64,000 bases of DNA, taken from the NCBI GenBank assembly GCA_965217775.1, contig CBDCJH010000002.1, forward strand, positions 1,472,001 through 1,536,000, given 5' to 3'. The notes under the pieces were generated by a model. That model had not been told where the DNA came from. It searched no databases and saw only the letters and a list, made by a program, of their open reading frames with translations. Positions 10,626-62,303 of the stretch are shown here, piece after piece. The translations under genes were made by a program, and so were the position numbers. How positions within the stretch are numbered: the stretch's first letter is position 1; each line of letters opens with the position of its first letter. Source of the DNA: Acidobacteriota bacterium (GTDB lineage Bacteria > Acidobacteriota > UBA6911 > RPQK01 > JAJDTT01).

Positions 10626-11351
10626 TTGCAATCACACGCCAAAGTTCGAGTCGAGAAGAAGTCGAGGCTCCGGGATCGAGTGTATGCGGAGCTGAAACGC
10701 AAGATCGTGAGCCGGGAACTTCCCACCGGCTCGCGCCTCGTGTTGCGTCGGCTGGCGAAGCGGCTCGGAGTGAGCGTGACGCCCGTTGTGGGGGCCATTC
10801 AGCGTCTGGAGCGGGACGGGCTGATCGTGATGGTGCCCGAGCTGGGTGCCTTCGTCAAGCAGTGGACTCGGGGGGAGATCCTGGAAGCGTACTACATTCG
10901 AAGGGCTCTCGAGAAGGAAGCGGCCCGCTTGTTTGTGGAGAGGGCGAGTCCGGAGGACAAGCGCAAGCTCATCGAACTCAACGATCTCTTCGATGGTTGC
11001 GCCTCCAAGGACCCGCTCAAGTGTGATGAGGCGGATATCAACCTGCACCTGCACATCGTTCGTTCCACGGGTCTACCAAGACTGTACGAACTGACCGCGA
11101 ATTCAAAGATCGGAACCACACTTCTCCATGGACTGACCATGTCCCGCTCGGAGTCACCCGAGGAAGTGGCTCTCAGTTTTCAGAGTAATCTGGGCTGTCA
11201 CAAGCCCCTGATTGAAGTTCTCCTGGGTGACGATCCCGAAGCGGCAGAGCGGGAGATGGCGAGACATATCGATAACATTCTCGAGGTGATTCTTGGTATC
11301 AAAGAAGAACCGAATAGTCCCAGTATTCAAGTTGTTTTAGAGGTCCCTTAG
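10626..11351 (+). CDS. GntR-family (FCD) transcriptional regulator
   Basis: LRDRVYAELKRKIVSRELPTGSRL...LGVSVTPV HTH; C-terminal FCD with D...H and AEREMARHI. Confidence 0.9.
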   Translation: MQSHAKVRVEKKSRLRDRVYAELKRKIVSRELPTGSRLVLRRLAKRLGVSVTPVVGAIQRLERDGLIVMVPELGAFVKQWTRGEILEAYYIRRALEKEAARLFVERASPEDKRKLIELNDLFDGCASKDPLKCDEADINLHLHIVRSTGLPRLYELTANSKIGTTLLHGLTMSRSESPEEVALSFQSNLGCHKPLIEVLLGDDPEAAEREMARHIDNILEVILGIKEEPNSPSIQVVLEVP

Positions 11352-41991: not shown

Positions 41992-42013
41992 GAGAAGGTA
42001 ACTGTCCCTTCCC
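41992..42013. repeat. 23-bp palindrome (family A), variant
   Basis: gagaaggtaactgtcccttccc. Confidence 0.6.
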
Positions 42014-42788
42014 CTTTGGTTCCCCTCGTGTGAAAGAGAGCAGAACAATGCAATCGAGGCTTGCGCCAGCAACAAGGGGATCATGCCCGCTGTGGTCTTC
42101 CTCAGCCATCTGCTTTTATGGCTGGTGAGGCTTTCCATGATTCCGATCTCCTTGAGGTGACTCAGCCAGGCGTGGAAGACGCTTGCAGTCGCCGTCGAAT
42201 CGCCGGTCTCCTGCCCCCCGTGGAACATCCCCACAGAGGGCAGGAGGTACGTATCAATGAATGTGAATTTCTCGCCGGAATCGGCTCACCGGGTTAACAG
42301 CCGGACAAGGGGCCACGTCTGGTGCGGGAAACCGGATGTCCATGGTCCGCTTTCGAGTCCGAAAATGTACTTTGTTCGTACTCGAGGGGACCGGGAGAAG
42401 GGGATTGTTACATTCTCGTACTCGTAGAGTCTTCAACCGACCTCGGGTCGGGCACGGGAACTCTGCTCATGGCTGCCGCTCAGGCCCTGACGCAGCGAAG
42501 CGAAAGAGATTCCAGGCCACGCAGCACGATGCTATTGCGAAAGCGTGGCCGCTCGTTGAGAAGATTGATCTGCGGGAAGCGTTCGAGCAGTGTCTCCAGG
42601 ACGATCCGGCCTTCGAGACGCGCCAGAGGGGCGCCCAGGCAATGATGGATACCGCGTCCGAATGCCAGGTGGTTTCCTTCTCCGCGCTCGAAATCGAGCC
42701 TGTCAGGGTTCTCAAAAACATCCGGATCCCGGTTGGCCGCGCCGAGCAGGACGACGATGTTCTCGCGCTCACGCAAAGGGAAACCGTT

Positions 42789-46975: not shown

Positions 46976-47212
46976 TTTCCTTGGACCCCTGCTCCCTGGT
47001 TCCCCCCAGGGTGACTTGTGATCCCTATGCAATGGTGATGGGTTCTCCGCAGAAGATAGCGGTACCAAACGCCACCCACAGCACTGAATGGAAGGCCACC
47101 TCCAAAAATATACAGTGAATAAGTGAATTTTATATGACAATAGGGGCGTATCTACTGACAATACTATGAATTATTATCCGAAGACCCTATCATTGGATCC
47201 CACAGGAGTCCG

Positions 47213-49654
47213 ATGCGTCTCAAACCCGGCTCCTCCATCGAGTCGATGGACCGGAACGCTGAACCGAGGCTCGATCCGGGGTCCGGCAAGGAAAGGCGAA
47301 TGCAGCGTCCCGAGGAACTGAGGCGAGAGATCGAAGCACTACGGGAGCGCATCTCCAAGCTGAGCGCGGCCAGTCTGCGCATCAGCTCGAGCCTGGACCT
47401 CAATACCGTCCTGCGCGAGGTTGTGGAAAGCGCCCGCGAGCTCACCGGCGCTCGCTACGGAGCCATCACGATCCTCGACGACTCTAGACAGCCCCAGGAC
47501 TTCGTCACTTCCGGCCTGACTCCCGACGACCACCGCCGGTTGCTGGACTGGTCCGACAGTTGGCGTTTCTTCGAGCACCTACGTGATCTTCCGGGACCGC
47601 TGAGACTGGGGGACCTGCACGGCTACGTCCGATCGCTCGGCTATTCCCCGGACGTGTTGCCGCCGTCCACCTTCCAGGGTACGCCAATGCATCATCAGGG
47701 CGTGCAAGTCGGCAATTTCTTTCTCGGTGGGAAGGAAGACGGACGGGGGTTCACGAGCGAGGATGAAGAGGTCCTGGTGTTGTTCGCGGCGCAGGCGGCG
47801 ACGGCGATTGCGAACGCCCACGCCTTCCGAAACGAACAGCGGGCCCGGGCCGACCTGGAGGCCTTGGTCGACATCTCACCCGTCGGCGTCGCGGTCTTCG
47901 ATGCCAAGTCCGGCAAGGCAGTGTCGTTCAATCGGGAGGTGAATCGGATTCTCGGAGGCCTGCTCTCGCCGGGCCACGGTGTGGAAGAACTGCTGGAGGT
48001 AGTGACGGTGCGCCGCCCTGACGGATGGGAGATCTCGCTGGAAGAATTTCCCCCAGCTCAGGCGATGAGCAACGCTCCGACGATCCGCGCCGAGGAGATC
48101 GTCCTCCAGGTGCCCGACGGCCGGAGTGTCACGACGCTGATGAACACTGCGCCGATCCGGTCCGAGGCCGGCACGATCGAGTCCGTGGTCGTCACGATGC
48201 AGGATTTGGCTCCTCTGGAGGAGTTGGAGCGGTTGCGGGCCGAGTTCCTGGGCATGGTGAGCCACGAACTGCGGGTCCCTCTGGCTTCCATCAGGGGCTT
48301 GGCCATCACCGTGCTGGGTTCGTCGTCGGTTCCCGACCCGGCCGAGATGCTCCAGTTCTTCCGCATCATCGACGAGCAGGCGGAGCACATGCACGGCCTG
48401 ATCAGCGATCTGCTGGATGCGGGCCGCATCGAGGCGGGGACATTGTCGGTCTCCCCGGAGGCGGCGGACGTGGCCGACTTGGTGGACCAGGCCAGAAACA
48501 CGTTCCTGAGTGGCGGCGGCCGGCACACTATCCGCATCGACCTTCCTCCGGACCTGCCCCGGGTGATGGCCGACAAGCGGCGGATCATCCAAGTCTTGAA
48601 CAATCTCTTGTCCAACGCTGCCAGGCACTCTCCCGAGTCGTCCCCCATCCGGGTCGCCGCGGCGCGGGATGGCGTCCACGTGGCGATCTCGGTCGCCGAC
48701 GAAGGCCTGGGAGTGCCTCCGGAACAGTTGCCGCACCTGTTCCGAAAACACGCGCGGGTCGGCGACAATCGCGGGATCGGGGGGTCCGGCCTGGGGCTGG
48801 CCATCTGCAAGGGTCTGGTGGAGGCTCACGGCGGGCGCATCCGGGCCGAGAGTGGCGGGGTGGGCCTGGGAACGCGGTTCACCTTCACGATTCCAGTGGT
48901 CCAAGAGGCCAGCCCCGCAGCCGGGTCCGGCTTCGCCCGGAGTTCGTCCAACGCGTCTCGGGGCGGCCAGGAACGAACTCGCGTCCTGGTGGTGGACGAC
49001 GACCCGCAGACGCTCCGTTACGTTCGTGACACTTTGCTGGGAGCAGGCTACGTGCCGTTCGTGACAGGCGACCCGCGGGAGGTATCCCACCTCATCAAGA
49101 CGAAGCAGCCCCGGCTGGTCCTGTTGGACCTGTTATTTCCCGGGATCGATGGAATCCAATTGATGCAGCATGTCCCCGAAATGGCTGACTTGCCGGTCAT
49201 CTTCATCTCCGGCTACGGCAGGGACGAGACCATCGCCAGGGCCTTGGACGTCGGAGCCGTCGATTACATCGTCAAGCCTTTCTCGCCGACCGAGTTGACG
49301 GCAAGAGTCCGGGCGGCCCTGCGCCGGCGGGACGAGCCGCCGGAACCCTTTCGGTTGCGGGATCTGGCCATCCACTATGAGGCCCGCCGCGTGACCGTGG
49401 CCGGCCGGCCGGTGCGACTTACGGCGACCGAATACGAGCTGCTCCGAACACTCTCGGTCAACGCGGGCCGGATCCTGACGTACGATTCGCTGCTACGCCA
49501 AGTCTGGGACCGGCGGGAATCCACCGACCATCGGGTGGTGCACGCCTACGTGAAGAGGCTCCGCCGCAAGCTGGGCGATGACGCGGCCAGTCCTGTCTAC
49601 ATCTTCACCGAGCGCCAAGTCGGCTACCGCATGCCCAGACCAGGCGACCTGTGA
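47213..49654 (+). CDS. Hybrid sensor: GAF-PAS-HisKA-HATPase-REC-OmpR winged helix
   Basis: VSHELRVPL, NLLSNA, GSGLGLAIC, VLVVDDD, DYIVKPF, LTATEYELL...VKRLRRKLGD; the true start may be 47300. Confidence 0.93.
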   Translation: MRLKPGSSIESMDRNAEPRLDPGSGKERRMQRPEELRREIEALRERISKLSAASLRISSSLDLNTVLREVVESARELTGARYGAITILDDSRQPQDFVTSGLTPDDHRRLLDWSDSWRFFEHLRDLPGPLRLGDLHGYVRSLGYSPDVLPPSTFQGTPMHHQGVQVGNFFLGGKEDGRGFTSEDEEVLVLFAAQAATAIANAHAFRNEQRARADLEALVDISPVGVAVFDAKSGKAVSFNREVNRILGGLLSPGHGVEELLEVVTVRRPDGWEISLEEFPPAQAMSNAPTIRAEEIVLQVPDGRSVTTLMNTAPIRSEAGTIESVVVTMQDLAPLEELERLRAEFLGMVSHELRVPLASIRGLAITVLGSSSVPDPAEMLQFFRIIDEQAEHMHGLISDLLDAGRIEAGTLSVSPEAADVADLVDQARNTFLSGGGRHTIRIDLPPDLPRVMADKRRIIQVLNNLLSNAARHSPESSPIRVAAARDGVHVAISVADEGLGVPPEQLPHLFRKHARVGDNRGIGGSGLGLAICKGLVEAHGGRIRAESGGVGLGTRFTFTIPVVQEASPAAGSGFARSSSNASRGGQERTRVLVVDDDPQTLRYVRDTLLGAGYVPFVTGDPREVSHLIKTKQPRLVLLDLLFPGIDGIQLMQHVPEMADLPVIFISGYGRDETIARALDVGAVDYIVKPFSPTELTARVRAALRRRDEPPEPFRLRDLAIHYEARRVTVAGRPVRLTATEYELLRTLSVNAGRILTYDSLLRQVWDRRESTDHRVVHAYVKRLRRKLGDDAASPVYIFTERQVGYRMPRPGDL

Positions 49655-50129
49655 GGACCCTCCGTTTGCGATGGAGTCCCACAGGAGGCGATACAGACAT
49701 GGGCTCTCCGGGTTGGGAAAGAGAATGACGGCACAAAGTCACGTCCGGAGCCGGGAAGCGGGGGTCAGGGGTAGGGGATAGCGCTGGTCCTCTCCGTCCG
49801 GACCGCGTTTCCGGCGGCTCAGGGCTAATCCGAGCCCGCCGAAAGAAAGAGGGCGGGAGTAAAGAAAGTAACTGTCCCATTTACCTGCGTTTTCCCATCC
49901 GATTCAACCGGTTAGCTCAAATTCGACGCGTCAAATCCCGGGAACTTCGGTCAAGAACCGTCGAGAGATCGGCCGCCGGTTGATCCGCAGCCACGCCCCA
50001 GTTACCATTATTTTCCGCGCTGAAGAGCAGCTGCGAATGCAAGCCCGTGCGAAGGGGAAGCGCGGTAGCGCGAAACCTTCAGCAATAGGACGCAGCCAGT
50101 AGAACAATTGAGGTACCAGGGGGCGGTTC

Positions 50130-51788
50130 GTGAAGCATATGAAGTGGTGGGGATGGGGAGAAGAGGGCGTCTCTTTCCGCCACGATGACAAGCCGGCATT
50201 CGCACAGTTCATTAAGGATGTGATCGACATCGACGTTACGCTGCCGCCCGTTTCCGTAACGAATCTCGACAGTTTTCCGCTGCCATCCCCATGTGCGCCG
50301 CCTGGATTACAGGCTTCCCTCGAAGCAATAGTTGGAACCGGCAACCTGAAGTGTGATCCGCTGGATCGAGTCGTTCACGCCTACGGAAAGAGCCTGCGGG
50401 ATCTTGTAAGGATTCGACGAGGCGACTTTGGTCGTACTCCCGATCTGGTCACTTACCCCGGATCAGAGGATGAAGTTGTTCGAATCGTGCGGACAGCGCT
50501 CTCTGCGGACGCGGTGGTGATTCCTTTCGGTGGAGGGACGAATATCGCTGGTTGCCTGGAAGCGCCGCGCGGCGAAATCCGTACCGTAATCTCTGTCGAT
50601 ATGTGCCGCATGAACCGTGTGCTGGAGATCGATGAGGTTTCGAGGCTCGCCCGCATTCAACCCGGAGCGCTGGGGCCGGACCTCGAGCGCCAGTTGAATG
50701 CGAGAGGATGGACTCTGGGACATTTCCCGGACAGCTTCAATCACGCCTCTCTGGGCGGCTGGATCGCGACCCGATCTGTCGGAATGCAATCCGACAAATA
50801 CGGCGATTTCGCGGACCTGACAAAGGCCTTCCGCGTGGTGACGCCCGCAGGTGTGCTGGTCACGAGGCCAGTTCCCAGTGCCGCCACGGGCCCCAGCGTC
50901 AAGGAGATGATCCTCGGCAGCGAAGGCCGTCTCGGCATTATCACCGAGGCTACCGTGCATGTGCATCGCGTTCCGCAAAAGCGCCAGATCTATGGATATC
51001 TGTTTCCGGACTGGACTGGCGGATTGGAGGCTATGGCGGCCATTGCGGCAAGCGATGCATTTCCATCCGTCACACGTATATCGGACGTCAACGAGACCCG
51101 TTTCTATTTCGCGACCAAAAAGCATGAAGCGTTGGTTGGACGTATGAAGTCGGCTCTTTCCAGGCTTTACCTTGAACGCGTGAAGCGCTTTGATGTTCGG
51201 CAGATGTGCCTCTCGTTCATTGGCTATGAAGGCTCCGAGAAACACGTGAAATCTCAAAAACGCCTGGTCGATTCAATCGTTGCCGGATATGGAGGTATAT
51301 GCATTGGAACCGGGCCGGGTGAACTCTTTGACCGAAAAAAATTCGACGTTCCCTACATCCGGGATTTCCTGCTCGACCGCGGTGCTCTCGGCGATGTTTC
51401 AGAGACGGCGGCTCCATGGTCTCAACTCGGGTCTCTGTACGACGGTGTGATGAGCAGAGCGGAGAATGCATTCAAGGACATCGGCGTGAAGGGCTATATC
51501 ATGTGCCATCTCTCCCACTCGTATCACTGCGGCGCGTGCCTGTACTTCACGTTTGCTTTCCGGCCATTAAATGAAGCTCGCTCCCTGGAAGAGTACGATG
51601 CGGTCAAGGGAGCCATCCAGCAAGGCTTCATCGACTTCGGCGGTACATTGTCCCACCATCACGCCGTCGGCGTGGAGCACGCGCCATGGTTGGAACAGGA
51701 TATTTCGCCCGCCGGCGTAGCAATGATCCGCTCGCTGCTCGACGGCGTCGATCCACGACATAACTTCAACCCCGGAAAGATAGTCTAA
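50130..51788 (+). CDS. FAD-linked oxidase, alkyl-dihydroxyacetonephosphate synthase (AGPS)-like
   Basis: MKWWGWG, PFGGGTN, GHFPDS, GSEGRLGIITE, CHLSHSY, SHHHAVG. Confidence 0.88.
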   Translation: MKHMKWWGWGEEGVSFRHDDKPAFAQFIKDVIDIDVTLPPVSVTNLDSFPLPSPCAPPGLQASLEAIVGTGNLKCDPLDRVVHAYGKSLRDLVRIRRGDFGRTPDLVTYPGSEDEVVRIVRTALSADAVVIPFGGGTNIAGCLEAPRGEIRTVISVDMCRMNRVLEIDEVSRLARIQPGALGPDLERQLNARGWTLGHFPDSFNHASLGGWIATRSVGMQSDKYGDFADLTKAFRVVTPAGVLVTRPVPSAATGPSVKEMILGSEGRLGIITEATVHVHRVPQKRQIYGYLFPDWTGGLEAMAAIAASDAFPSVTRISDVNETRFYFATKKHEALVGRMKSALSRLYLERVKRFDVRQMCLSFIGYEGSEKHVKSQKRLVDSIVAGYGGICIGTGPGELFDRKKFDVPYIRDFLLDRGALGDVSETAAPWSQLGSLYDGVMSRAENAFKDIGVKGYIMCHLSHSYHCGACLYFTFAFRPLNEARSLEEYDAVKGAIQQGFIDFGGTLSHHHAVGVEHAPWLEQDISPAGVAMIRSLLDGVDPRHNFNPGKIV

Positions 51789-52043
51789 AGACAAGTCGGA
51801 GGGAATCAGGACGGCATCAACGGCTTAGAAGGGACACGCCGGGCGCCGGGCGGGAGAAGGGGACAGTCACTTTCTCTCTTCCTCGGTGCGATGACTGTCG
51901 AATGTTCGGCGGTTGGAAATCCGTATTTCCTGGACGGATGGGACGGCGACGTTTCAACCGGCCGCTCATCCAGGTTTTCGAGCCCTATTGTGACCTTGGG
52001 AGTTCGGGGATTAACAACCCCCGCTCCCAGGAGGTCCCGAACG

Positions 52044-53162
52044 TTACGAGCGGGACCTGGAATCGAACCGGTGGATCGTCGCCGCTTCCATGGCGTCCCA
52101 GTCGATTTCCACGCCCAGGCCGGGCCCGGAAGGCGCGACGACGAGTCCGTCCGGTCCGGTCCGGATCACGTCGTGCATGCCGTACTCGTAGGGTTCCCAG
52201 GGGACGGCCTGCTCGAAGTACGTGCTCAGCCCGGTTCCCAGCATCAGGTGGAGGTTGGCAGATGAGATCAGCGTGGTGCCCCAGGACATGATCTCGCAGC
52301 GCATGCCCGCGGCTTCCACCGCGGACAGATACTTCCGGCCCCCAGTGAAGCCGCCGGCGACCGTGACATCGGTCCGCGCCGCCGTCCAACATCGGGTCGC
52401 CAATGCGTGCCGGAACGCCGTCAGGTCCTGAAGCCAATTCCCCGAGGGAAGGATCGGCACCTCAAGGCTCTGGGTCAGCTCGCGATAACCCGGCAGGTCG
52501 TAGTCAAACAGCGGAGCTTCGAACCAAGTGAATCCCAGGTCGTGCAGCTCGGCGCCGACCCGGTGGGCACTCTGCAGGTCATAGTTGTTCTCAACGTCCA
52601 ACATGAAGGCCACGTCGTCGCCGAATTCCTTGCTGGCGGCGCGGGCCAGCTCGAGGTCCTTTTCCGGCAGACACCAACAGTGGAACTTCACGGCGCGAAA
52701 GCCGCGCTCGATCATTTCTTCGACAAAACGGAGATACGCCGGCACGTCGTCCAGCATCGGCGTGCTGGCATACGACGGGATTCGATCCATTGCCCCTCCC
52801 AAGAGCTGATAGATGGGCTGTCCGGCGGCCTTGCCCCTCAGATCCCACAATGCGATGTCGATGACGGACAGGGCTTGCGGCGGAAGGGGAAAGACCCGCG
52901 GCCACAGACTCTGCCAGATCTCTTCCACCTCCGTCGCATCCTGGCCGATCACCGCAGGGATCAAGTGCCGCAACGTCTCGCAGGTGTAGCGATCGAAATC
53001 GAAGGACGTGCAATTCCACACGCCGCCGACGCCCACGTGGCCGTCCTTCGTCGTGATCCGGACGATGGTATTGGTCATGAACTGTTCGCCCAGGTCGTGC
53101 GACCACGTAAAGCGCTGCACATTGGGCGCCACGACCATGACTTCAACACGCTCTATTTGCAT
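52044..53162 (-). CDS. Mandelate racemase/muconate lactonizing enzyme family protein
   Basis: IDIALWDLRGK, GFRAVKFH, MLD, WFEAPL, PGLGVEID. Confidence 0.9.
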   Translation of the reverse strand: MQIERVEVMVVAPNVQRFTWSHDLGEQFMTNTIVRITTKDGHVGVGGVWNCTSFDFDRYTCETLRHLIPAVIGQDATEVEEIWQSLWPRVFPLPPQALSVIDIALWDLRGKAAGQPIYQLLGGAMDRIPSYASTPMLDDVPAYLRFVEEMIERGFRAVKFHCWCLPEKDLELARAASKEFGDDVAFMLDVENNYDLQSAHRVGAELHDLGFTWFEAPLFDYDLPGYRELTQSLEVPILPSGNWLQDLTAFRHALATRCWTAARTDVTVAGGFTGGRKYLSAVEAAGMRCEIMSWGTTLISSANLHLMLGTGLSTYFEQAVPWEPYEYGMHDVIRTGPDGLVVAPSGPGLGVEIDWDAMEAATIHRFDSRSRS

Positions 53163-53382
53163 GAGGACCGTCCTCGGGAAGCGACCAGGTTCTGTTGTCG
53201 GTGGCCCTTATTCTGGCGGAAGGAGTCGGGGACCGCGAGTCGGGCTTTCCTCGCGGGGAGAAGGTAACTGTCCCCTTCTCTCCTGGTTGGCAGCAGTCTC
53301 CAGAATTGTGGCTGGATCCAGCGCGCCCAGCAGACCCAAGCTCAAAGTTACGGTCAGCAGCGAGGTCGTGGGTCCCCACAGG

Positions 53383-53625
53383 CTAAGATACGAGGTCTTC
53401 GGGGAGTGAACGGGCATCCGGAACGGTTCTTTCGCGGAACTCCTTGGACACGGCCAGCGCATCCTCGATCCGGCTGACACAATCCTGCAGATGACCGATC
53501 TGTGTCTCCAGGCTGGTGATGCGGACATCCAAGCGCAACTCCATCTGTTTTACGAACCGAATCTGGCCCCGGAGGGCGGTGGCCAAGTAAAGAAAGCCTC
53601 CGACGAGAATCAGATTCCAGAGCAT
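53383..53625 (-). CDS. Small hypothetical protein (TM + coiled coil), copy 1
   Basis: 80 aa; reading frame conserved in the diverged copy at 54896-55138. Confidence 0.65.
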   Translation of the reverse strand: MLWNLILVGGFLYLATALRGQIRFVKQMELRLDVRITSLETQIGHLQDCVSRIEDALAVSKEFRERTVPDARSLPEDLVS

Positions 53626-53897
53626 TTTTCTATTCTCGAAGTCTCTCCGGTCCTGGCAAACGGGGAGGAGATTCCATCTTGGTCCGTAAACTCCTTACGT
53701 ATTCAGTGATGCGGGGGAACTCCTTTTGGCCGAAGGATCCGCGGGAGAAGGGGACAGTCACCTTCTCTCTTCCTTTGTTTTTTTGCTGAGAGAATCAGGG
53801 ATACCTGGAATCCCAAGAAGGCACCGAGACGGGTGACATCGGTCGATTGCAGCGCCAGTTGAGATTGCCTTCCGCTTCGGCTTCGCGCATAGCGGTG

Positions 53898-54302
53898 TCA
53901 CGCGGACTTCCGCCCCTCCGTCTCGCAATCGTTGCGCACGCCAACGACCTCGGCCAGGCTCACTACTATGAGAACCGCCACAATGCCCCAGAGAACGGCG
54001 GCACCTTTGATGGAAAGAGAAAGGTCCCCGAATAGTAGCCACGCTGATAGAACCAGGGCGCCACAGAGGTTGATCACAACAGCTCCACCGAGCCCAAGAC
54101 CGCGTGAGCGGTCTGCTCCTCGCTGCATCCAAAGCGCGATGCCAATGCCGAAGAGTACAGCGCCAAGAATGTTGGGATAAAACGCAGAGCCGGGCTCTGG
54201 AATCCCGAGGAAGGAAATGAGATCTCGTGGGAACACGAGCAGGAGCACACCCAGCAGTAGGTTGATAAGGCTGTCAATGGTGACCAATAGCGAGCGGTTC
54301 AT
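53898..54302 (-). CDS. Hypothetical membrane protein (4 TM)
   Basis: LLVTIDSLINLLLGVLLL...FYPNILGAVLFGIGIAL...INLCG. Confidence 0.75.
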   Translation of the reverse strand: MNRSLLVTIDSLINLLLGVLLLVFPRDLISFLGIPEPGSAFYPNILGAVLFGIGIALWMQRGADRSRGLGLGGAVVINLCGALVLSAWLLFGDLSLSIKGAAVLWGIVAVLIVVSLAEVVGVRNDCETEGRKSA

Positions 54303-54423
54303 GAATCTGCCCATGCTTGTACAAGTACGGTAATCACCTGACACCCGGCCTCACCGAGGTCAGGTCCCGGGAGAAGGGGACAGTCACTTTCTCTCTTCCT
54401 TCGAAGCCGGTGCCGCACCTGCC

Positions 54424-54798
54424 CGCGCGCTTGGTGCGGAGCCCGGACGAGCTCAGCGACTGGCTGTCCGCAGAAGAAGTTCGTAGAGAAGATATAGAAC
54501 CCGCGGGATTGCCCCGAACTCCGAGCCCAACCGCAGCGCTGGTATGAGAGCCGGATTGCGGCGGGCCGAACCTCCTCGCGGATGCGGGCGCCTAAACCGT
54601 CGAGTCCAGGCCCCGGGCGAGCGCCACCTCGCGGGCGCTGGGGTTCACGGAGGGGCGGAAGGGAACCTCGCACACCCGTGCGCGGTCCGGTCGGCCCGGC
54701 TCGCTCGCGTATTCGTCGGGCAACCACACCGTGAGCTCCGTGCCGACGGCCGACTTCCCGGCGGGCACGTGCCCGAGCGCTATGTTGCAGCCCAGCTC
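54424..54798 (-). pseudogene. Duplicated 3' end and downstream region of the GcvT-family gene
   Basis: Near-identical to about 59184-59557; encodes ELGCNIALGHVP...LARGLDSTV* without a start. Confidence 0.88.
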
Positions 54799-54895
54799 GC
54801 GAACGGGAGAAGGGGACAGTCACCTTCTCTCTTCTGCGCCCGGCAGACCCCAGCACAAGGTTACGGTCAGCAGCGAGGCCGTGGATCCCTACCGG

Positions 54896-55138
54896 CTAAG
54901 ATACGAGGTCTTCGGGGAGTGTACGGGCATCCGGAACGGTTCCTCCGCGGCACTCCTTGGACACGGCCAGCGTGTCTTCGATCCGGCTGACGTAATCCCG
55001 CAGATCGCCGATCTGCGTCTCCAGGCTGGTGATTCGGACATCCAAACGCAACTCCATCTGCTTCAGGAACCGAATCTGCGTCCGGAGGGCGACGGCCAAG
55101 TAAAGAACGCCTCCAATGAGAATCAGGTTCCAGATCAT
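54896..55138 (-). CDS. Small hypothetical protein (TM + coiled coil), copy 2
   Basis: MIWNLILIGG...KQMELRLDVRITSLETQIG; paralogue of 53383-53625. Confidence 0.65.
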   Translation of the reverse strand: MIWNLILIGGVLYLAVALRTQIRFLKQMELRLDVRITSLETQIGDLRDYVSRIEDTLAVSKECRGGTVPDARTLPEDLVS

Positions 55139-55422
55139 GTGCCTATTCTCGAAGTCTCTCCGGGCCTGGCAAACGGGGAGGAGATTCCATCTTGGTCCGT
55201 AACTCCTCAGTATTCAGTGATGCGGGGGAGTTCCTTCTGGCCGAAATGAAGAACGGGCCACCGACTCGGCGGATCGGGTCTTGGCCTCGTTTTCGGCCCC
55301 GGTGGGATCACGGGACCGAAAAGCGGGAGAAGGGGACAGTCACCTTCTCCCCTGGTTCCGGTTTCGCCACTGGATTCCCCCGGGGGGGCTTGGATCGCCG
55401 CGGCCCTGTTTTGGTTTCGTCC

Positions 55423-55710
55423 GAAGAGGCTCCGCCGCAAGCTGGGCGATGACGCGACCAGTCCTGCCTACATCTTCACCGAGCGCCAAGTCGGCTACCG
55501 CAGGCCCAGCCCCGGAGACCTGTGAGGACCCTCCATCTGCAATGGAGCTCCACAGGAGGTGACACAGACATGGACTCGTCGGGTTGGGAAAGAGAGTGAC
55601 GGCACAAAGTCACGTCCGGAGAGGGAAAGCGGGGGTCAGGGATGGGGCATAGGGCTGGTCCTCTGCTTCTGGACCGCATTTCCGGGGGCTCAGGGCTGAT
55701 CCGAGTCCCC
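55423..55710 (+). pseudogene. Duplicated 3' end and downstream region of the hybrid kinase gene
   Basis: Aligns with about 49552-49840 (KRLRRKLGDDA...YIFTERQVGYR...DL* and 3' UTR) with scattered substitutions. Confidence 0.85.
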
Positions 55711-55822
55711 CGTAGGAAGGGAATCCAGGATTAGAGTCCTGCCTGTTGTTGTGAAGATGCCGCCCAGTTCACATCCTCGGTTTCAAGGGAGCGGTTCGGA
55801 CCTTATGTCCAATCCCGAGCGG

Positions 55823-58800
55823 TTACTGGGCCAAAGGCACCACGGGCAGCGTTGTGAAAATCCGCTTACCGGCATCCATCTCCAAGACCACTCCGCTGAA
55901 CGTTCCTCCATCAGGGGCCGCACAGTGCACGGAGCCTGTGAAATCGGACGTGTCGGTCTGCTTGAAGATCTGGTCGATGAAACCGGCGATCTGGCCGTTG
56001 GGCTCCATATCGATGTCCTCCTGGGCCAACATCCTGCCTTTCTGCAGCAGACTGCAGGTGACCGTCATCGCCTCCGCTTCCAGGTTGTGGATTGCCACAC
56101 CGGTATTGATCCCGTCCTTTTGGCGACGGGCCGGGAAGACGGCGGCCGTGACTGGTGCACTGGCCCCGACACCGGCTACTCCCACGTCCGGGATGTCGAA
56201 GCGCAGGACTCCGCCGATGGGTGCATCCGCTACCACTCTCACCGATCCGGTCTTCAACTCGCCCTCCCCGGTCGTTGTAATCGTCAGCTCGCCCAGCGGT
56301 TGGATCTCCTTCTCGAGGGCAACGGCTCCGCCGTCTGCGACTTCCAGATCATCCGCCCCATCCACCACCGATCCGGCGTCAACGGGATTGCCGTCCGGAT
56401 CGAAAAAGTAGATGGCGGTGCGGACCGCATTGGTCCCCACATTCACCAACACTAAGTCGGAGGCGTTGGAAGCCCCATTGGCAAAGTGGGCAAAGTCCAG
56501 AGTCAGTTCCGGACCTCCGACCGCCGCCGCGTTCAAGGGCACCACGGGCAAGGTAGTGAAGATCCGGGCAGCGGCATCCATCTCCAGAGCCACACCAGTG
56601 AACATTCCGTTCTCAGGAGCGGTGCAGTGCACCGAGCCCGTGAAGTTGGTGGTGTCGGTTTCTTCAAACAGCTCGTGGATGAAAACAGCCTCCTGTCCGT
56701 CTCCTTCCAACGTGATCCGCGCCGTGTCTCGCACGGCGCCGCCCTGCCTCAAGTGGCACGTCACCACGATCGGCTTCTCTCCCCAGTTGCGGATGGCGGC
56801 GCCAGTGTTGATCCCTGACAACCGGCGCCGAGCCGGAAAAATGGCGTCTCGGACGGGTTGGCTGGCTCCCACCCCGGCTACCCCAATGTCCGGGTGGTCA
56901 AAGCGCAGAACCCCGCCGATGGGACCGTTGGAGATCACTCTCACGGACCCGGTCGCCAGCTCCCCTCGGCCGTGGGTCGAAATCGTGAGTTCTCCCAGGA
57001 ATTCCAGCTGCGACCGGATGCCCAGACTTCCATCCTCCCCGAACACCAGACCATCCGTATTCTCGACCACCGATCTCGCCGCAATCGGATCTCCCTGTTT
57101 ATCGTAAAAGTGGAGGGTAGGCTGGATCGGATAGTCAGCCACATTCACCAACACCAAGTCAGAGGTGATGGAAGCCCCATTGGCAAAATGCGCAAAGTCC
57201 AGAGCCCATCGAAGTTCCTCGTAATGCACGTTAACCCCTCGACTATGGAGGAAAGGGATGTGCGTATTGATGGAGCGGGCGCTAAGAGGATTTTCCCAGA
57301 CCACAAGTTCGCCCAAATGGGTCAATTGTGCCAGGGGAAAGAGATCCGACACCGAATTCTCCCCAAGAGCCAAATATTGCAAGTCGGTCAAACCCGCCAG
57401 AGGGGAGAGATCCGAAATGCTGTTGTCGTAAAGCTCCAGGTGTTCTAGGACGGTCAGGCCCACCAGGGGGGAGAGATCCGACACCGAATTCCCCCCAAGA
57501 GCCAAAGAACTCAGGTTGGTCATTCCCGCCACGGGGGAAAGATCCGAAATGCTGTTGTCGTAAAGCTCCAACAGTTCCAGGATCGTCGATCCCGCCAGAG
57601 GTGTGATGTCGCGAATCTGATTCAGGCCCAGGGACAAACTCTTTAGATTAACGGCATGCTCGAGCCCGGTAAGGTCCGCAATCTGGCGAGCTGAGGCTCC
57701 CAGGTACCCCAATTTCAACATATCCAGTTGCGTTACGGCCTCCCCTGTTGCCAACCCGAGGGTTTCCCGCACCGCTGCGGCCAAATTCGCGTCCGGTATC
57801 GACACAATCTCGGGGGTAAGCAGAGCCGTGAGTTCGATTGGATATCGTTGCTCCGTGACATTTCCGTACCCATCGACAACGCGGAGCGTCACCGCATTTC
57901 CGGGGGCATCTGTCACTTCAGATGTGACAAATTCAACGGGGGCGCTTTCGCCATTTGTCGTTTGACAATCAATTGCTTCGCCGGTGCTGTTTTGCAGCTG
58001 CGCTTGATGGAGGCCGTCGGAATCGGTTACCTCGAAGCGGAGGCGGATCGAGTGCGGTGGAACTGGGAGCGGCGAGAGCATCCGAATCGTGGTTGGTTCG
58101 TCTGCATCGGGATAGGTGCGGCCAATATTGAAGTAACGATGGCCATCCAACCATTCGGCGGCACACAATGATGTGACCATCCAGTCGGTATGGTACGAAG
58201 ATGGGGTGCGCGTGGCATTTCTGAGGTGATCATGCGCCAATCCAAAGGCGTGGCCGAGCTCATGGGCAGTAACTGCAACATTGAAACAGCTCCAGCCACG
58301 TTCCCGTTGGAGGACACGGTTGGGAGCGGGCACAAGTACCGCTCCGCCTTCGGGTCCAAGGGATGCGCCTTGCCCGCAATAACCGTCGACGGTTGCGGTA
58401 CTTACATCGAGCAGGACGAGGTAGACATTCCTCGACCGGTCAAACTGTTCAGCCACTTCCGTCCAGATGACTTTGCCGAAAGCGTCCGTGTGATAGTACG
58501 CATCGTCGAACTTCCCCTTCACATGATGAACCACAGCCTTACCGATGGCATCAGTTTCATACCTGAAGGTTCTTCTGCCGAACCCATGGTTTTCCAGTTG
58601 CTCCGCGTATGATTGCTGTACGTCTTTTATCAGTGCATCCAGAATTCGGTCTATGAATGGCTCTGGTTGGCGATCACGTGGGAGAAAGTAGATCAACCGA
58701 ACTGTGCGGGGTTCGCCGACGTCCAAATTTGCCTGCCGCGTGAGGGCACTAGGAGGGCGATCATGCTCCCACTTAAGGAGGTCGACTGGCGAGCAGATAG

Positions 58801-58903
58801 GGACCTTATCGGCCGGCGAGGGCGAAGCATGGACAAACGACAGCGGAAAAAGCAATAGACTGATCAAGGTGGATGGAACCACAATTAAAATGGAGGTGTT
58901 CAT
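55823..58903 (-). CDS. Secreted zinc metallopeptidase + internalin-like LRR + two repeated C-terminal domains
   Basis: TAHELGHAFGLAH (HExxHxxGxxH); 22-aa LRRs (L.L.DNSISDLSPL.GLT); duplicated LDFAHFANGAS...IFTTLPVVPL domain. Confidence 0.88.
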   Translation of the reverse strand: MNTSILIVVPSTLISLLLFPLSFVHASPSPADKVPICSPVDLLKWEHDRPPSALTRQANLDVGEPRTVRLIYFLPRDRQPEPFIDRILDALIKDVQQSYAEQLENHGFGRRTFRYETDAIGKAVVHHVKGKFDDAYYHTDAFGKVIWTEVAEQFDRSRNVYLVLLDVSTATVDGYCGQGASLGPEGGAVLVPAPNRVLQRERGWSCFNVAVTAHELGHAFGLAHDHLRNATRTPSSYHTDWMVTSLCAAEWLDGHRYFNIGRTYPDADEPTTIRMLSPLPVPPHSIRLRFEVTDSDGLHQAQLQNSTGEAIDCQTTNGESAPVEFVTSEVTDAPGNAVTLRVVDGYGNVTEQRYPIELTALLTPEIVSIPDANLAAAVRETLGLATGEAVTQLDMLKLGYLGASARQIADLTGLEHAVNLKSLSLGLNQIRDITPLAGSTILELLELYDNSISDLSPVAGMTNLSSLALGGNSVSDLSPLVGLTVLEHLELYDNSISDLSPLAGLTDLQYLALGENSVSDLFPLAQLTHLGELVVWENPLSARSINTHIPFLHSRGVNVHYEELRWALDFAHFANGASITSDLVLVNVADYPIQPTLHFYDKQGDPIAARSVVENTDGLVFGEDGSLGIRSQLEFLGELTISTHGRGELATGSVRVISNGPIGGVLRFDHPDIGVAGVGASQPVRDAIFPARRRLSGINTGAAIRNWGEKPIVVTCHLRQGGAVRDTARITLEGDGQEAVFIHELFEETDTTNFTGSVHCTAPENGMFTGVALEMDAAARIFTTLPVVPLNAAAVGGPELTLDFAHFANGASNASDLVLVNVGTNAVRTAIYFFDPDGNPVDAGSVVDGADDLEVADGGAVALEKEIQPLGELTITTTGEGELKTGSVRVVADAPIGGVLRFDIPDVGVAGVGASAPVTAAVFPARRQKDGINTGVAIHNLEAEAMTVTCSLLQKGRMLAQEDIDMEPNGQIAGFIDQIFKQTDTSDFTGSVHCAAPDGGTFSGVVLEMDAGKRIFTTLPVVPLAQ

Positions 58904-59350
58904 GTTTTCACCTGTTGATCGCAACTGCCAGAGTCGTCGCGACGGAATCTAATCCCGTCCCGTTGGGCCGCGCGCTTCCTGCTCGCGTACTGACCCGCAG
59001 AGCCTCGCCGCCCAAGATTCAAATCGGCTCCCGATTCGTCTGCCGCCCGTCGGAAAACACAGGGAAACCAGAAGATCTCTTGAACTGTGGCTCTATACTA
59101 CTCGCAAAGCGCTCCCAAAGCGGGTCAATTTCCCATTGGCGTTGTTAGAACGGGAGAAGGGAACAGTCACCTCCTCTCTTCTGCGCGTGCTCGGTGCGGA
59201 GCCCGGACGAACTCAGCGACTGGCTGTCCGCAGAAGAAGTTCGTAGAGAAGAATAGCACCCGCGGGATTGCCCCGAACTCCGAGCCCAACCGCAGCGCTG
59301 GTATGAGAGCCGGATTGCGGCGGGCCGAACCTCCTCGCGGATGCGGGCGC

Positions 59351-60652
59351 CTAAACCGTCGAGTCCAGGCCCCGGGCGAGCGCCACTTCGCGGGCGCTGG
59401 GGTTCACGGAGGGGCGGAAGGGAACCTCGCACACCCGTGCGCGGTCCGGTCGGCCCGGCTCGCTCGCGTATTCGTCGGGCAACCACACCGTGAGCTCCGT
59501 GCCGACGGCCGACTTCCCGGCGGGCACGTGCCCGAGCGCTATGTTGCAGCCCAGCTCGGGGGAGTGCCACGGCGACGTGAGGTAGCCGATCGGGTCGCCG
59601 CCGTCCGCGTCCGACACGAGCCAGAAGTCCGGAGCATAGTCGTCAATGGGGTTTCCGCCCAGCGTCATCCCGATCATGACCATCGCGAACGGACAACGCC
59701 CGGCGTCGAGCTCGGCGCGCTGGCGCTCCAGCACGGCCCGCCCGATGTAGTCTCCCGCCTTCTCGCGCGGCACCTGGTAGGCCAAGTTGCACTGGAACGG
59801 ACTCGTCTCGTGGTCGATGTCCTGTCCCCACGACAGGATCCCGGCCTGGATCCTGCGCTGGTGGCCCGGCGCGATGACCATCAACTGGTGCCTGTCCCCC
59901 GCGTCAAGCACCGCGCGCCACAGCTTCTCGGCGTGCAGGGTGGCGTCCCGAAGATAGATCTCGTACCCCTTCTCGCCCGAGAACCCGGACTGGGAGACCA
60001 CCACGGAACAGCCCGCGATCTGAGCCTCCATGAGCCCGTAGTAGGGGATGTCCCGGACGCCCGCGCCCACCAGGTCGGTCATGAGGTCGAGCGACTTCGG
60101 CCCCTGGATCTGCAACGGACAGACGTCGATCTCGTCGATCTCCACCTCCATCCGAAGCCCGATGTTCACGCCCTGGAGCCAGAACAGGACGTCGGAGTCG
60201 GCAAGCGAGAACCAGAACTCGTCCCTGGAGAGCCGCAGCAGCACCGGGTCGTTGAGGATGCCGCCCTTCTCGTTGCAGAGGATGACGTACTTCGCGTGCA
60301 TCGGCTCGATGCGCGTAGCGTCCCGGGTGATCACGTAGTCGGTGAACCGTTCCGCATCCGGTCCCCTGACCCGGATCTGCCGCTCCACCGCGACGTTCCA
60401 CAGCGTGACGTCCCGGGTCAGCGCTTCGTGCTCTGCCGCCGCGCCGCCGTCCTCGGGCCGCACGTAGCCGCGGGGGTGGTAGATGCGGTTGTACACGGTG
60501 GCCCGCCAGCAGCCCGCTTCATGCGACAGATGCCAATACGGAGACTTCCGGACCCGGGTGGAAATGAGCAGCTCGGTCGGTGTACGGCCGCTCTGGCGAA
60601 GGTTGATCGGGACGATCCTGTCGGACTGGTCCACGCTGATCGGTTGATGCAT
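59351..60652 (-). CDS. GcvT-family aminomethyltransferase / DmdA-like demethylase
   Basis: RVRKSPYW...TVYN, LWNVAVERQI, GGILNDPVLLRL, QIQGPKS, SGFSGEKGYEIY, RRIQAGILSWG. Confidence 0.88.
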   Translation of the reverse strand: MHQPISVDQSDRIVPINLRQSGRTPTELLISTRVRKSPYWHLSHEAGCWRATVYNRIYHPRGYVRPEDGGAAAEHEALTRDVTLWNVAVERQIRVRGPDAERFTDYVITRDATRIEPMHAKYVILCNEKGGILNDPVLLRLSRDEFWFSLADSDVLFWLQGVNIGLRMEVEIDEIDVCPLQIQGPKSLDLMTDLVGAGVRDIPYYGLMEAQIAGCSVVVSQSGFSGEKGYEIYLRDATLHAEKLWRAVLDAGDRHQLMVIAPGHQRRIQAGILSWGQDIDHETSPFQCNLAYQVPREKAGDYIGRAVLERQRAELDAGRCPFAMVMIGMTLGGNPIDDYAPDFWLVSDADGGDPIGYLTSPWHSPELGCNIALGHVPAGKSAVGTELTVWLPDEYASEPGRPDRARVCEVPFRPSVNPSAREVALARGLDSTV

Positions 60653-60883
60653 GGTCGATCCCCTCAATCCATTGTGACCGGCCCGGAGCATGCGCTACCG
60701 CAACGGCTCCGGGCATCCGTGCGTTGAGCCCCCAGAGGACGTGAACTTTTCCGAGCATTAGGTGCGCTTTTCCTCCGTGTGTCAAGCACCGGGCCCGGGC
60801 CGGCGCCCTTGACAAAGCCCTGCGCTTTCAAGCACGCTGCAACGCAAGAAACCCTGTTCGGGAGAGTGACAAGCATGCGCAAT

Positions 60884-61471
60884 ATGGCAACGTCGAGCGG
60901 TACTACGGTGAGCTTCACCAGTATGGCGGACGGCACCCGCGAGGACTACGAGCTGCTCGGGCGCCATGAGGAGGAGTTCGCCGCCGGCACCGCCGACCGA
61001 GTGTTGGCGTATCTTCGCGAGTTGTCCGGTTCGCTCGCCGGCTACCAGGTCGACCGGCTGGAGCATTCTCTGCAGACCGCGACCCGCGCCTATCGCGACG
61101 ACGCGGAAGAGGAGCTGGTGGTGGCGGCGCTCCTGCACGACATCGACGACATGCTGGCCCCGCACAGCCACGGCGAGCTGTCCGCGCTGCTGCTGCGCCC
61201 GTACGTGACCGAGCGAACGTACTGGATCGTCCAGCACCACGGCCTGTTCCAGTACTACTACTACGCCCACCACGTGGGCGGCGACCGCAATGCGCGCGAC
61301 AAGTATCGCGACCATCCCTGGTATCGGGACGCCGTGGACTTCTGTCACCGCTGGGACCAGTGCGCGTTCGATCCCGACTACGATTCGCTGCCGCTGGAGT
61401 TCTTCGAGCCGATTGTGCGCCGTGTGTTCGCGCGCGAACCGTTCAGTCTGGCGCCGAGGGAGCATTCCTGA
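60884..61471 (+). CDS. HD-domain protein (PhnZ/TmpB-like phosphohydrolase or oxygenase)
   Basis: RLEHSLQTATRA, AALLHDI, HGE, HHGLFQ, WDQCAFDP. Confidence 0.85.
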   Translation: MATSSGTTVSFTSMADGTREDYELLGRHEEEFAAGTADRVLAYLRELSGSLAGYQVDRLEHSLQTATRAYRDDAEEELVVAALLHDIDDMLAPHSHGELSALLLRPYVTERTYWIVQHHGLFQYYYYAHHVGGDRNARDKYRDHPWYRDAVDFCHRWDQCAFDPDYDSLPLEFFEPIVRRVFAREPFSLAPREHS

Positions 61472-61511
61472 CCGTGGAGCACGAGGATTCCGGTGATGGG
61501 CTTCTGGCCCA

Positions 61512-62303
61512 TCAGTGCCCGGCAATGACGTCCTGAAGCTGCTTGCCCTTTTCCTTCCAGAACGAGTAGAGGATCCCCAGGTCGCCGCCGAGAATGAAAT
61601 GGCGCACGCCCATGTCCAGGTAGGGACGGGCGTCCTCGGGTGAATGGATTCCCACCTTCGGATGAACCCCCATCTTCAGGGAGGTTCGGATCACCCGGTT
61701 CCGGGCCGCGGTGATCTCGGGGTCGTCCCACTGGCCCGGCTTGCCGATGTTCAAGGAGAAATCGGCAGCGCCGAACTGGACCATGTCGATTCCCCCCACG
61801 TCCAGGATCGCCTCCAGGTTGTCCACGGCGGACTTCTTCTCGATCATGAGGGCCACGACCGAGTTCTCCAGAATGTTCACGTAGGTGTCCGGACCGTCCA
61901 GGAAGTACCGGGCCACGCGCCGGTCTCCATAGCCCTGATGCCCCACCGATCCCGGGGTCTCGGGTTTCATGGCGGCGACGCATTGCCGGGCTTCCTCGGG
62001 AGTGCGGACGTCGGCGAAGAGGACGTTCTGGATGCCGGCCCCGATCGCCCGGGCGGCCATGAAGGTCCTGGGCTCCTGGTCGATCTTGATCATGGCGGAC
62101 AGATGGGGGAACAGCTCCGTGACGCGGGCGAAGTGGTCCATCCAATGCAGGTCGTAGGGGACGTACTCGGCCTCGAATTCGACGTAGTCGAAGGTTCCGG
62201 CGTGTCCCAGCATCTCCACCACGTCGGGTGAAGAGGTGTAGATGTTGGTGGACACCGTGGTCTCACCGGCGTCGAGCTTCTGGCGCAGTCGGTTGGGTTT
62301 CAT
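61512..62303 (-). CDS. HpcH/HpaI aldolase/citrate lyase family protein
   Basis: FDYVEFEAEY, ALMIE, IDMVQFGAADFS; AGGAG RBS before MKPNRL. Confidence 0.88.
   Translation of the reverse strand: MKPNRLRQKLDAGETTVSTNIYTSSPDVVEMLGHAGTFDYVEFEAEYVPYDLHWMDHFARVTELFPHLSAMIKIDQEPRTFMAARAIGAGIQNVLFADVRTPEEARQCVAAMKPETPGSVGHQGYGDRRVARYFLDGPDTYVNILENSVVALMIEKKSAVDNLEAILDVGGIDMVQFGAADFSLNIGKPGQWDDPEITAARNRVIRTSLKMGVHPKVGIHSPEDARPYLDMGVRHFILGGDLGILYSFWKEKGKQLQDVIAGH

Follow-up and report, generated by a model that had tools for sequence, protein, structure and literature searches.

A REP-like repeat marks the edges of gene-sized blocks at variable loci of an Acidobacteriota genome and is probably cognate to a multi-copy Y1 HUH transposase

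What builds a row of single genes and gene fragments that are separated from one another by copies of the same 23-base palindrome? This question is raised by a locus in a 64,000-nucleotide stretch of DNA from a soil-type Acidobacteriota bacterium (the window; C2:1472001-1536000). The window sits within the larger of two contigs, 6.29 Mb long, which together make up an assembly of 6.43 Mb (62% G+C; GCA_965217775.1; here G000). A sequence-only reading of the window had proposed that the palindrome may be a recombination or capture site, either of the repetitive extragenic palindrome (REP)/REP-associated tyrosine transposase (RAYT) type or of the tyrosine-recombinase type, that builds an integron-like mosaic. 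We found that the palindrome is the form taken in one array by a family of REP-like repeats whose conserved part is GAGAAGGGGACAGTC(A), and that the motif marks the edges of gene-sized blocks that are acquired, lost, duplicated and rearranged at fixed hot spots. We consider it probable, though well short of certain, that this family is cognate to a multi-copy 311-aa Y1 HUH (RAYT/IS200-like) transposase and that arrays, block ends and cassettes were built by its action.

A search of the window with GAGAAGGGGACNGTCACCTTCTC, allowing up to 3 mismatches and using 100 dinucleotide-preserving shuffles as a control, returned seven good copies of the palindrome GAGAAGGGGACAGTCACCTTCTC between 51854 and 59176 (14 strand-matches in the window, against 0.00 per shuffle, n = 100), with about one gene or gene fragment between adjacent copies, as the sequence-only reading had described. 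The copies stand at 51854..51876 (+, 1 mismatch), 53258..53280 (-, 1 mismatch, in the orientation opposite to the others), 53745..53767 (+, exact), 54371..54393 (+, 1 mismatch), 54807..54829 (+, exact), 55327..55349 (+, exact) and 59154..59176 (+, 2 mismatches), the last of these beside the full-length gcvT and at the position of the single motif in the relatives G002 and G005. The copies at 54807 and 59154 have the flanks GAACGG...TCTCTTCTGCGC in common, and the flanks previously given as usual are found at most copies, with CGG 5′ of six of the seven and TCTTC(C/T) 3′ of five of the seven. An eighth copy, listed as degenerate at 49862, was not detected at up to 3 mismatches but is visible by eye as a remnant on the minus strand (49862..49884) with about 7 mismatches in 23 bases, so that "degenerate" is apt; it forms the left edge of an oxidase-gene insertion, and homology to G002 stops at window position 49814. 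The interval contents were also as listed before, namely an oxidase, an MR/MLE enzyme, 80-aa open reading frames (ORFs), a hydrophobic protein, gcvT and kinase fragments, a leucine-rich repeat (LRR) peptidase and a GCV_T gene. Self-comparison of the window gave three duplications (54494-54793 = 59253-59552, 99%; 53323-53622 and 54836-55135, 88%; 49552-49847 and 55423-55718, 89%), with ends 6 to about 80 bp from the nearest motif, in agreement with the spacing first reported. No recombinase of the relevant kinds is encoded in 47000-62000, again as had been stated; an unrelated multi-copy insertion sequence sits outside this interval, at 42776-44040.

The history of the locus can be read from the same place in five relatives. 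The left neighbour is a hybrid histidine kinase/response regulator gene (47213..49654, +; GAF-PAS-HisKA-HATPase_c-Response_reg-Trans_reg_C by Pfam), and the conserved anchor of the locus is an MR/MLE-family (enolase superfamily, Pfam) gene (52044..53162, -), called the racemase gene here, whose region is 86-89% identical in G001, G002, G004, G005 and G006. The conserved right anchor is a GCV_T-family aminomethyltransferase gene (gcvT; 59351..60691, -; Pfam). G002 is arranged as kinase, racemase, an 81-bp piece of a neighbouring gene, one motif and gcvT, and G005 as racemase, one motif and gcvT. In G001 the racemase gene is joined to gcvT with no motif, and a short direct repeat at the junction suggests a deletion, while G004 has 1.4 kb of different DNA, including an inverted piece of a neighbouring gene, and gcvT is absent from the locus in G006. 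The kinase gene is the ancestral left neighbour of the racemase gene, which it adjoins at a distance of 16 bp in G002, where the oxidase gene is absent from the orthologous position. Relative to these genomes, G000 has gained the oxidase segment (about 49815-51975) and, between racemase and gcvT, 5.9 kb of DNA (53240-59183) with five further motifs; homology to the relatives stops near the 53258 motif (53238-53239 in four genomes, 53178 in G004). What was one ancestral motif site now comprises six copies and an additional 5.9 kb. The motif at 54371 retains the right flank that is found beside gcvT in G002 and G005 and is therefore the ancestral copy of the site. Next to it comes a second copy of the gcvT 3′ end with the spacer downstream of that gene (54394..54793; 54424-54793 = 59184-59552, 96-99%), whose homology ceases 14 nt ahead of the next motif. 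The 4.36-kb segment that comes after it (54794-59153) opens with a motif and is enclosed by two direct copies of a stretch of about 420 bp that consists of the motif and the gcvT 3′ end.

The window array is one of many in the genome. At up to 4 mismatches the 23-mer has 123 genomic copies, and the 12-base core AAGGGGACAGTC has 236 at up to 1 mismatch, whereas six scrambled versions of it gave 18-47. The family numbers about 200 copies, which are mainly intergenic (193 of 236 core copies by our own rough ORF calls). The conserved portion is the left arm with the centre, the left 15-17 bases being kept across genomes, while the right arm and the flanks differ by array, each array having its own variant. 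Downstream of GTC the forms are GTCAC (88 copies), GTCTA (39), GTCTG (23), GTCTC (19) and others, and in G023, a genome from another family, the right arm is not complementary to the left. The repeat described by the sequence-only reading is real, but the unit that is conserved is not the palindrome itself, whose arms do not co-vary. The copies are not uniformly scattered, since 138 neighbour gaps are shorter than 5 kb where 35 are expected, and of the neighbouring pairs no more than 12 kb apart, 85 are co-oriented and 19 are not (copies beside transposase genes excluded). Fourteen arrays with a total length of 179 kb contain 109 of the 220 core matches of contig C2. Genes in these arrays are shorter (median 253 vs 356 aa), and their codon-usage score is lower (0.153 vs 0.197 per codon, p 2e-9); the arrays contain toxin-antitoxin pairs, paralogous genes, truncated copies and a DDE transposase. 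Copies in the same array share up to about 34 identical bases including flanks, and small tandem duplications of half a motif as well as direct doublets 26-58 bp apart occur.

Arrays stand at conserved hot spots, and their content varies between species and between two haplotypes. An array near 2.11 Mb of C2 has the same flanking genes in G002, G003, G005 and G007 with different content, and G006 matches both flanks, at separate places. Against five relatives, a hand tally of this array gave nine distinct positions at which a homology block ends within 15 nt of a motif (3328, 3370, 4722, 4746, 7877, 8810, 9609/9616, 10987-10993 and 15579 of locus L010). Fragments of flanking genes are duplicated within the corresponding arrays of G005 and G006, as in the window. 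Within the G000 array, a 1.42-kb cassette consisting of a motif, a GFO_IDH_MocA-family gene and a second motif occurs twice (C2:2110328-2111749 = 2116572-2117992, 90.8% identity), with both bounding motifs included in the duplicated unit and with unrelated flanks. Two transposase-bearing elements that are 94.5% identical (C2:1207622-1208982 and 1209941-1211308) likewise start and end at direct copies of the core, so that the cassette has the end architecture of an autonomous element. Other transposase copies are flanked by repeats in variable numbers, and their ends are accordingly not sharp. Among copy pairs within the genome, homology that abuts a motif on one side only was seen seven times on the right and one or two times on the left.

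The second contig of the assembly, C1 (144 kb), provided a built-in comparison with a close relative, because it is not a plasmid but a second haplotype, 92-97% identical and colinear to C2:5152009-5303614, which fits the 7.5% contamination figure of the assembly. Motifs fall in or at the non-aligned gaps in 12 of 16 cases on C1, where such gaps make up about 12% of the contig, and in 14 of 18 cases on its C2 counterpart, and about six of ten large haplotype differences involve motifs. A transposase element with repeats at C2:5250100-5251760 is absent from C1; the insert starts with a motif and is bracketed by an 87-bp direct duplication. The position of breakpoints, which had been suggested as a check on the capture-site proposal, gave support, with synteny and haplotype breakpoints at or within motif clusters. 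Duplication ends over the whole genome also lie within 30 bp of a motif more often than random intergenic points do (5.0% vs 0.87%), a comparison to which we give little weight because the set includes matches between the haplotype contigs.

Several other structures were seen in or near these arrays. A 445-bp repeat in the 2.11-Mb array (L010:15579-16023; C2:2122578-2123022) starts 2 nt past a motif and has up to about 20 copies in relatives (78-87% identity), most of them in G006. A 65-residue fragment of a phage-type integrase, a truncated gene piece, lies directly beside a motif in the same array (C2:2115579-2115773). Another region (C2:4400001-4420000; L012) holds a partial tandem duplication of a PhyH / PSCyt-PSD1 / DUF1501 gene set, in which one PSD1-family copy is truncated, a DUF1501 3′ fragment is present and a motif follows each PhyH copy. 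Most prominent in the self-comparison of the genome is another high-copy repeat, of about 165 bp (median length 165 among 22,857 matches), which is polymorphic between the haplotypes, as at C2:5250013-5250100 and in many indels of 140-200 bp between C1 and C2; this is a probable miniature mobile element with no relation to the motif.

The sequence-only reading had advised a search for a RAYT or integrase flanked by the motif, and for the RAYT the result was positive. A genome scan with Pfam PF01797 gave three matches, one of them between copies of the core, and a protein search of G000 then recovered a 311-aa transposase in 11 full-length copies of 83-100% identity, one with a stop codon, together with a fragment. 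All copies are encoded outside the window, and the flanks that were read carry cores. The protein scores 37.3 bits against the Y1_Tnp model (PF01797; cut-off 23) and 50.7 bits (E 1.7e-13) against NCBIfam REP_Tyr_transpos (NF047646), over model positions 3-144 of 146, which is below the equivalog cut-off of 80. The HuH motif is at H63-F-H65 and the tyrosine is Y162 in YVELNAVRAGLV, both invariant among 14 homologues; about 97 residues separate them, the tyrosine region reads YVELNA and is of the Y---N type, and the protein has an extra C-terminal part. A structure model built from the alignment of 14 homologues has a mean pLDDT of 72, mostly 80-94 over residues 11-140 and low past residue 225, and its best Foldseek match was 4ER8 (E 3e-6), the E. 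coli TnpA-REP bound to a REP hairpin, with further matches to 2F4F, 2VIC, 2A6M and 2XM3, which are IS200, IS608 and ISDra2 transposases. Searches of PDB sequences with the protein and with a 14-sequence profile returned no relative, and one source labels homologues as "REP element-mobilizing transposase RayT". The 311-aa protein is a member of the Y1 HUH transposase superfamily (TnpA-Y1).

This enzyme and the repeat occur together well beyond a single genome. At four G000 copies with flanks read, a GAGAAGGGGACAGTCTGTTTTTC-type repeat lies upstream in the gene's direction and a CGGAAAGGGACAGTCTCGATTCCC-type repeat lies downstream and inverted, while a fifth and a sixth copy have direct core copies at their termini. 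A scan of one genome per species gave 51 transposase loci, of which 48, in nine other Acidobacteriota genomes, have full flanks, and all full-length loci fall in Acidobacteriota metagenome-assembled genomes (one unpublished genome, G016, enters solely as part of these cross-genome tallies). At least one upstream core in the gene's direction was present at 47 of the 48 loci, a downstream inverted core at 39 and both at 38, with strand counts of 88 "+" and 4 "-" upstream and 13 "+" and 83 "-" downstream. Eight other genomes of the genus have 3-11 transposase matches each. The exact 15-mer is in 8 of 8 genomes of the genus and also, in 55 copies, in G023, which belongs to another family of the same order and has a transposase that is 79% identical; it is in 0 of the 6 sister-genus genomes searched, where homologues of the transposase are only 43-54% identical. 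The G023 repeat, GAGAAGGGGACAGTCAYCATTTAG, retains the core but is not palindromic, and the GTCAC form stands directly downstream of the transposase gene, from which we conclude that the palindrome is a local feature and that the core is the conserved signal. G023 also has dense non-coding arrays (19 copies in 2.2 kb, L074:3648-5804; 12 in 1.5 kb, L072:12210-13737), in which the spacing is mostly about 35-220 bp and often close to 130 or 200 bp; the genus of the window differs from this in its gene-sized spacing.

From these observations we infer that the transposase itself moves the cassettes. It would bind the conserved core, perhaps through its extra C-terminal part, and nick one strand at the motif edge. 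If so, segments bounded by co-oriented motifs would behave as non-autonomous elements or recombination modules that may be excised, copied or exchanged. New units might be placed preferentially beside resident motifs, which would explain the co-orientation, the array-specific variants and the growth of the arrays, and the duplicated 3′ ends of flanking genes could be scars of events completed by host replication or homologous recombination. A bolder version, which we put forward tentatively and think rather less likely than its negation, is an HUH-based counterpart of the integron, in which the DNA between co-oriented motifs is an IS200/IS605-like non-autonomous element that is lifted as a single strand and set beside an existing motif, so that hot spots grow into exchangeable cassette arrays shared across the genus and, via transfer of the transposase, across Acidobacteriota families.

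A number of results weigh against a transposase-driven origin. Four of the roughly ten large haplotype differences have no motif, and several breakpoints are 10-80 bp off a motif and not at it. Insertions stand between direct duplicates of target DNA, 87 bp and about 420 bp in length, which known Y1 peel-and-paste does not make and which look more like homologous or replicative events; these long duplications, with the breakpoints tens of bases away, misfit clean peel-and-paste and keep alive the rival accounts in which the repeats are passive markers or short homologies. Public reads were consulted as Logan contigs from four runs in two studies, with pieces no longer than about 1.6 kb. These short contigs showed neither excision products or circles nor empty donor sites, and the sides of their joints at motifs are shorter than 30 letters; joints at 51791/51879 to 53743-53747 and at 59793 to 54805/55325 have sides of less than 30 letters or come from related strains. 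The motif has no orientation preference relative to genes (56 vs 55 in co-directional contexts), and the flips in orientation between neighbouring arrays argue against a simple lagging-strand bias; nor does orientation track the replichores. No GT[AG]G foot was found on the repeat when GTAG and GTGG were looked for. The hairpin is weak, the best copy reaching -7.5 kcal/mol (z -2.3), while the transposase-proximal form does not fold and the folding of other copies is no stronger than that of shuffled sequences. Nor is there co-variation between the arms (4.96 of 7 complementary positions vs 4.96 when shuffled). Given this weak folding and lack of co-variation, a structure-driven model was dropped and recognition of the conserved core is preferred. 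The link between the GTCAC form and the enzyme itself rests on the shared core and on co-occurrence, which within the genus is confounded by common descent.

The two accounts that are kept alive in this way leave the enzyme out of cassette movement. In one, which we regard as improbable but worth serious attention, 23-34-bp near-identical units act as short homologies for RecA-dependent or template-switch recombination. Copies in the same array share up to about 34 identical bases with their flanks, any crossover inside the repeat would give motif boundaries, and the half-motif tandem duplications and the direct doublets 26-58 bp apart suggest slippage. REP sequences have been placed at the join-points of Salmonella duplications, although our literature search did not recover this precedent. 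Homologies this short, however, recombine rarely, whereas the arrays are very dynamic; the co-orientation (85 vs 19) and the identical ends of the autonomous elements and the cassette point to the transposase, and the excess of right over left one-sided homologies (7 vs 1-2) is an asymmetry that symmetric crossover would not predict. In the other account, which we judge unlikely, REP-like repeats spread by the transposase merely pile up in dispensable, variable DNA (islands, toxin-antitoxin modules, imported genes), and ordinary horizontal transfer and homologous recombination make the mosaics. The shorter array genes with their lower codon-usage score, the toxin-antitoxin genes and DDE transposase in the arrays, the motif-free haplotype differences (four of about ten) and the long flanking duplications, which fit homologous integration, are all in keeping with such passive accumulation. 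It accounts less well for homology blocks that repeatedly end a few nucleotides from motif edges (within G000, between the haplotypes and against five relatives), for the duplicated cassette that is motif-bounded at both ends and for a window array that grew exactly at a pre-existing single motif.

Much less weight falls on the remaining explanations. Of the two kinds of site offered by the sequence-only reading, the REP/RAYT type is upheld, and a system of the integron or another tyrosine-recombinase type, in which the palindrome would serve as an attC-like site, is very unlikely in our view, despite the co-oriented arrays, the content of about one gene per interval, the toxin-antitoxin cassettes and the integrase fragment of 65 residues inside the 2.11-Mb array. 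None of 28 candidates passed the cut-off of the TIGR02249 integron-integrase model (best 80.6 vs 265 bits), no intact integrase adjoins any array (apart from that one fragment, the integrase matches of the genome lie away from arrays), and the right arm is not conserved between genomes. The site is also unlike attC in being 23 bp long with a 1-base centre. Sites of the attC kind are about 57-141 bp long with paired R and L boxes, and no second box is conserved in the flanks here, the repeated unit being 23-34 bp. A regulatory element, whether an operator for a dimeric regulator, a terminator or an mRNA-stabilising hairpin, is just as hard to credit: the motif is palindromic, intergenic and often 50-200 bp past a stop codon, but it shows no orientation preference against genes (56 vs 55), is not terminator-like, brackets transposase genes and ends homology blocks, and its arms do not co-vary. 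Terminator and promoter scans found nothing at the motifs, no T-run follows them, and there was no Rfam match. Least credible of all is an assembly artefact in which strains were collapsed or mis-joined at the repeat. The assembly does hold the 144-kb second haplotype and 7.5% contamination, and the metagenomes contain related strains with other junctions; yet the window is inside a 6.29-Mb contig, the same kind of array is found at syntenic places in several independently assembled closed genomes, and pieces from four runs reach each of the 30 bins of 47000-62000, although the mosaic is not spanned by any of them. With differences of 1-12%, the duplicated segments are not collapsed copies. 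The reading that we prefer is that of a repeat family cognate to the Y1 HUH transposase.

The cargo of the window array is varied. The FAD-linked oxidase gene (50130..51788, +) has the Pfam domains FAD_binding_4 and FAD-oxidase_C. An 80-aa ORF with a hydrophobic N-terminus and no Pfam match is present as copy 1 (53383..53625, -) and copy 2 (54896..55138, -), whose proteins are 82.5% identical; it was ruled out as a regular cargo of the motif, as it has only three genomic copies, one of them without a nearby motif. Between these copies lies a gene for a 148-aa hydrophobic protein (53898..54344, -; no Pfam match), probably located in the membrane. The duplicate of the kinase 3′ end and downstream spacer (55423..55718, 89% identical to 49552-49847) has the kinase gene of the locus as its parent. 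It is followed by a gene for an LRR-containing zinc metallopeptidase of 1033 aa (55823..58924, -; Pfam), for which the locus in the five relatives gave no match at 85% or above and only paralogue matches of 64-71%. The C-terminal module of this protein has dozens of paralogues (64-71% identity) in every genome of the genus; the gene contains C-terminal repeat units at 55832-55998 and 56534-56700 (702 bp apart, 73% identity) and three 66-bp LRR units at 57331-57594. Upstream of the locus, two weak inverted motif copies lie in 41992..42417, one at 41992 (-, 4 mismatches) and one at 42395-42417 (+, 3 mismatches). The insertion sequence at 42776-44040 is 1.25 kb long (ORF 42844-44019, 391 aa) and has about 13 more genomic copies of 95-98% identity; at one of these, the haplotype contigs differ in whether the insertion is present.

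The usual picture of a REP/RAYT system is one domesticated gene accompanied by doublets of non-coding repeats, and the effect of such systems on the host is a matter of debate. The RAYT relative described here appears to behave like an insertion sequence, and the gene-sized blocks bordered by its repeat vary from one close genome to the next at corresponding chromosomal sites. Should the enzyme indeed be what moves these blocks, cassette arrays could arise through single-strand transposases with no need of an integrase, which would add to the known routes of gene capture and offer a way into genome plasticity in the Acidobacteriota, a large phylum of soil bacteria most of which are uncultured. 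On even the most cautious reading, the motif is a practical marker of hypervariable loci in these genomes. The literature that we found on RAYT/REPIN systems, REP join-points and dRS3 contained nothing on REP-bounded gene-cassette arrays or on this motif, although no search was aimed at these.

Among known systems, integron cassette arrays and clusters of attC sites lacking integron-integrases (CALINs) share with these arrays the co-oriented repeats with about one gene between them, the toxin-antitoxin cassettes, the array-specific repeat variants and the fixed position with variable content. They differ in that no integron integrase is present here, the site is 23 bp long with only its left 15-17 bases conserved and the associated enzyme is of the HUH type and not a tyrosine recombinase. 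Neisserial dRS3 repeats are associated with a phage-encoded transposase/recombinase, which we take to belong to another family than the Y1 HUH enzyme. The dRS3 units are 20-bp inverted repeats in arrays that delimit variable segments; syntenic arrays vary in number and length between strains, and the units were proposed to be recombinase binding sites that promote the exchange of adjacent genes (PMC1797815). The dRS3 arrays are the closest parallel as arrays of repeats for which a role in the exchange of neighbouring genes has been proposed, although their units separate 50-150-bp non-coding segments and not genes, and they belong to a different phylum (PMC1797815).

IS200/IS605 elements such as IS608 and ISDra2 resemble the present transposase in their Y1 HUH fold and in being multi-copy, with 83-100% identity here. 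Some elements in G000 are also bounded by two similar direct ends on one strand, which is the end geometry of IS200/IS605. Unlike these elements, most copies here have inverted flanking repeats in variable number, there is no tnpB, hundreds of end-like repeats stand alone, and the tyrosine motif is Y---N and not the Y----Q given for class 1 (PMC6006769).

The likeness to REP/RAYT systems (REPtrons, E. coli TnpA-REP 4ER8, Pseudomonas REPINs) lies in a Y1 HUH gene bracketed by inverted short repeats, in the dispersal of the repeat by hundreds in intergenic DNA and in the best fold match, 4ER8. Bertels et al. (2017, PMC5581495) stress that RAYTs are single-copy, and a single or low copy number with divergent copies is expected of the group (PMC5581495, PMC6006769), whereas 11 near-identical gene copies (83-100% identity) are present here. 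Further departures are the length of 311 aa with about 97 residues between HuH and tyrosine and an extra C-terminal part, the NCBIfam score under the family cut-off (50.7 vs 80 bits), the weak or missing hairpin, the lack of the 5′ GT[AG]G foot given as a feature of the repeat in PMC6006769 and the arrangement in co-oriented arrays around genes instead of inverted doublets. In the classification of Quentin et al. (2018, PMC6006769), class 2 TnpA-REP proteins have a Y---NP motif and a low copy number, and the Y---N kind of tyrosine motif is shared with the enzyme described here; subclass 2.3 members are long and multi-copy, lack recognisable flanking REPs and are found mainly in Chromatiales and Alteromonadales; and the rare class 3, from Acidobacteria and Planctomycetes, has several gene copies with atypical high-copy flanking repeats and stands between insertion sequence and REPtron, but with a Y----Q motif and a CnGA foot, neither of which was found here. 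The present system shares traits with class 2, subclass 2.3 and class 3 and fits none of them fully. The evidence taken together supports a REP/RAYT-type system that is atypical in its multi-copy transposase, in a repeat without the GTAG foot and in its co-oriented gene-cassette arrays.

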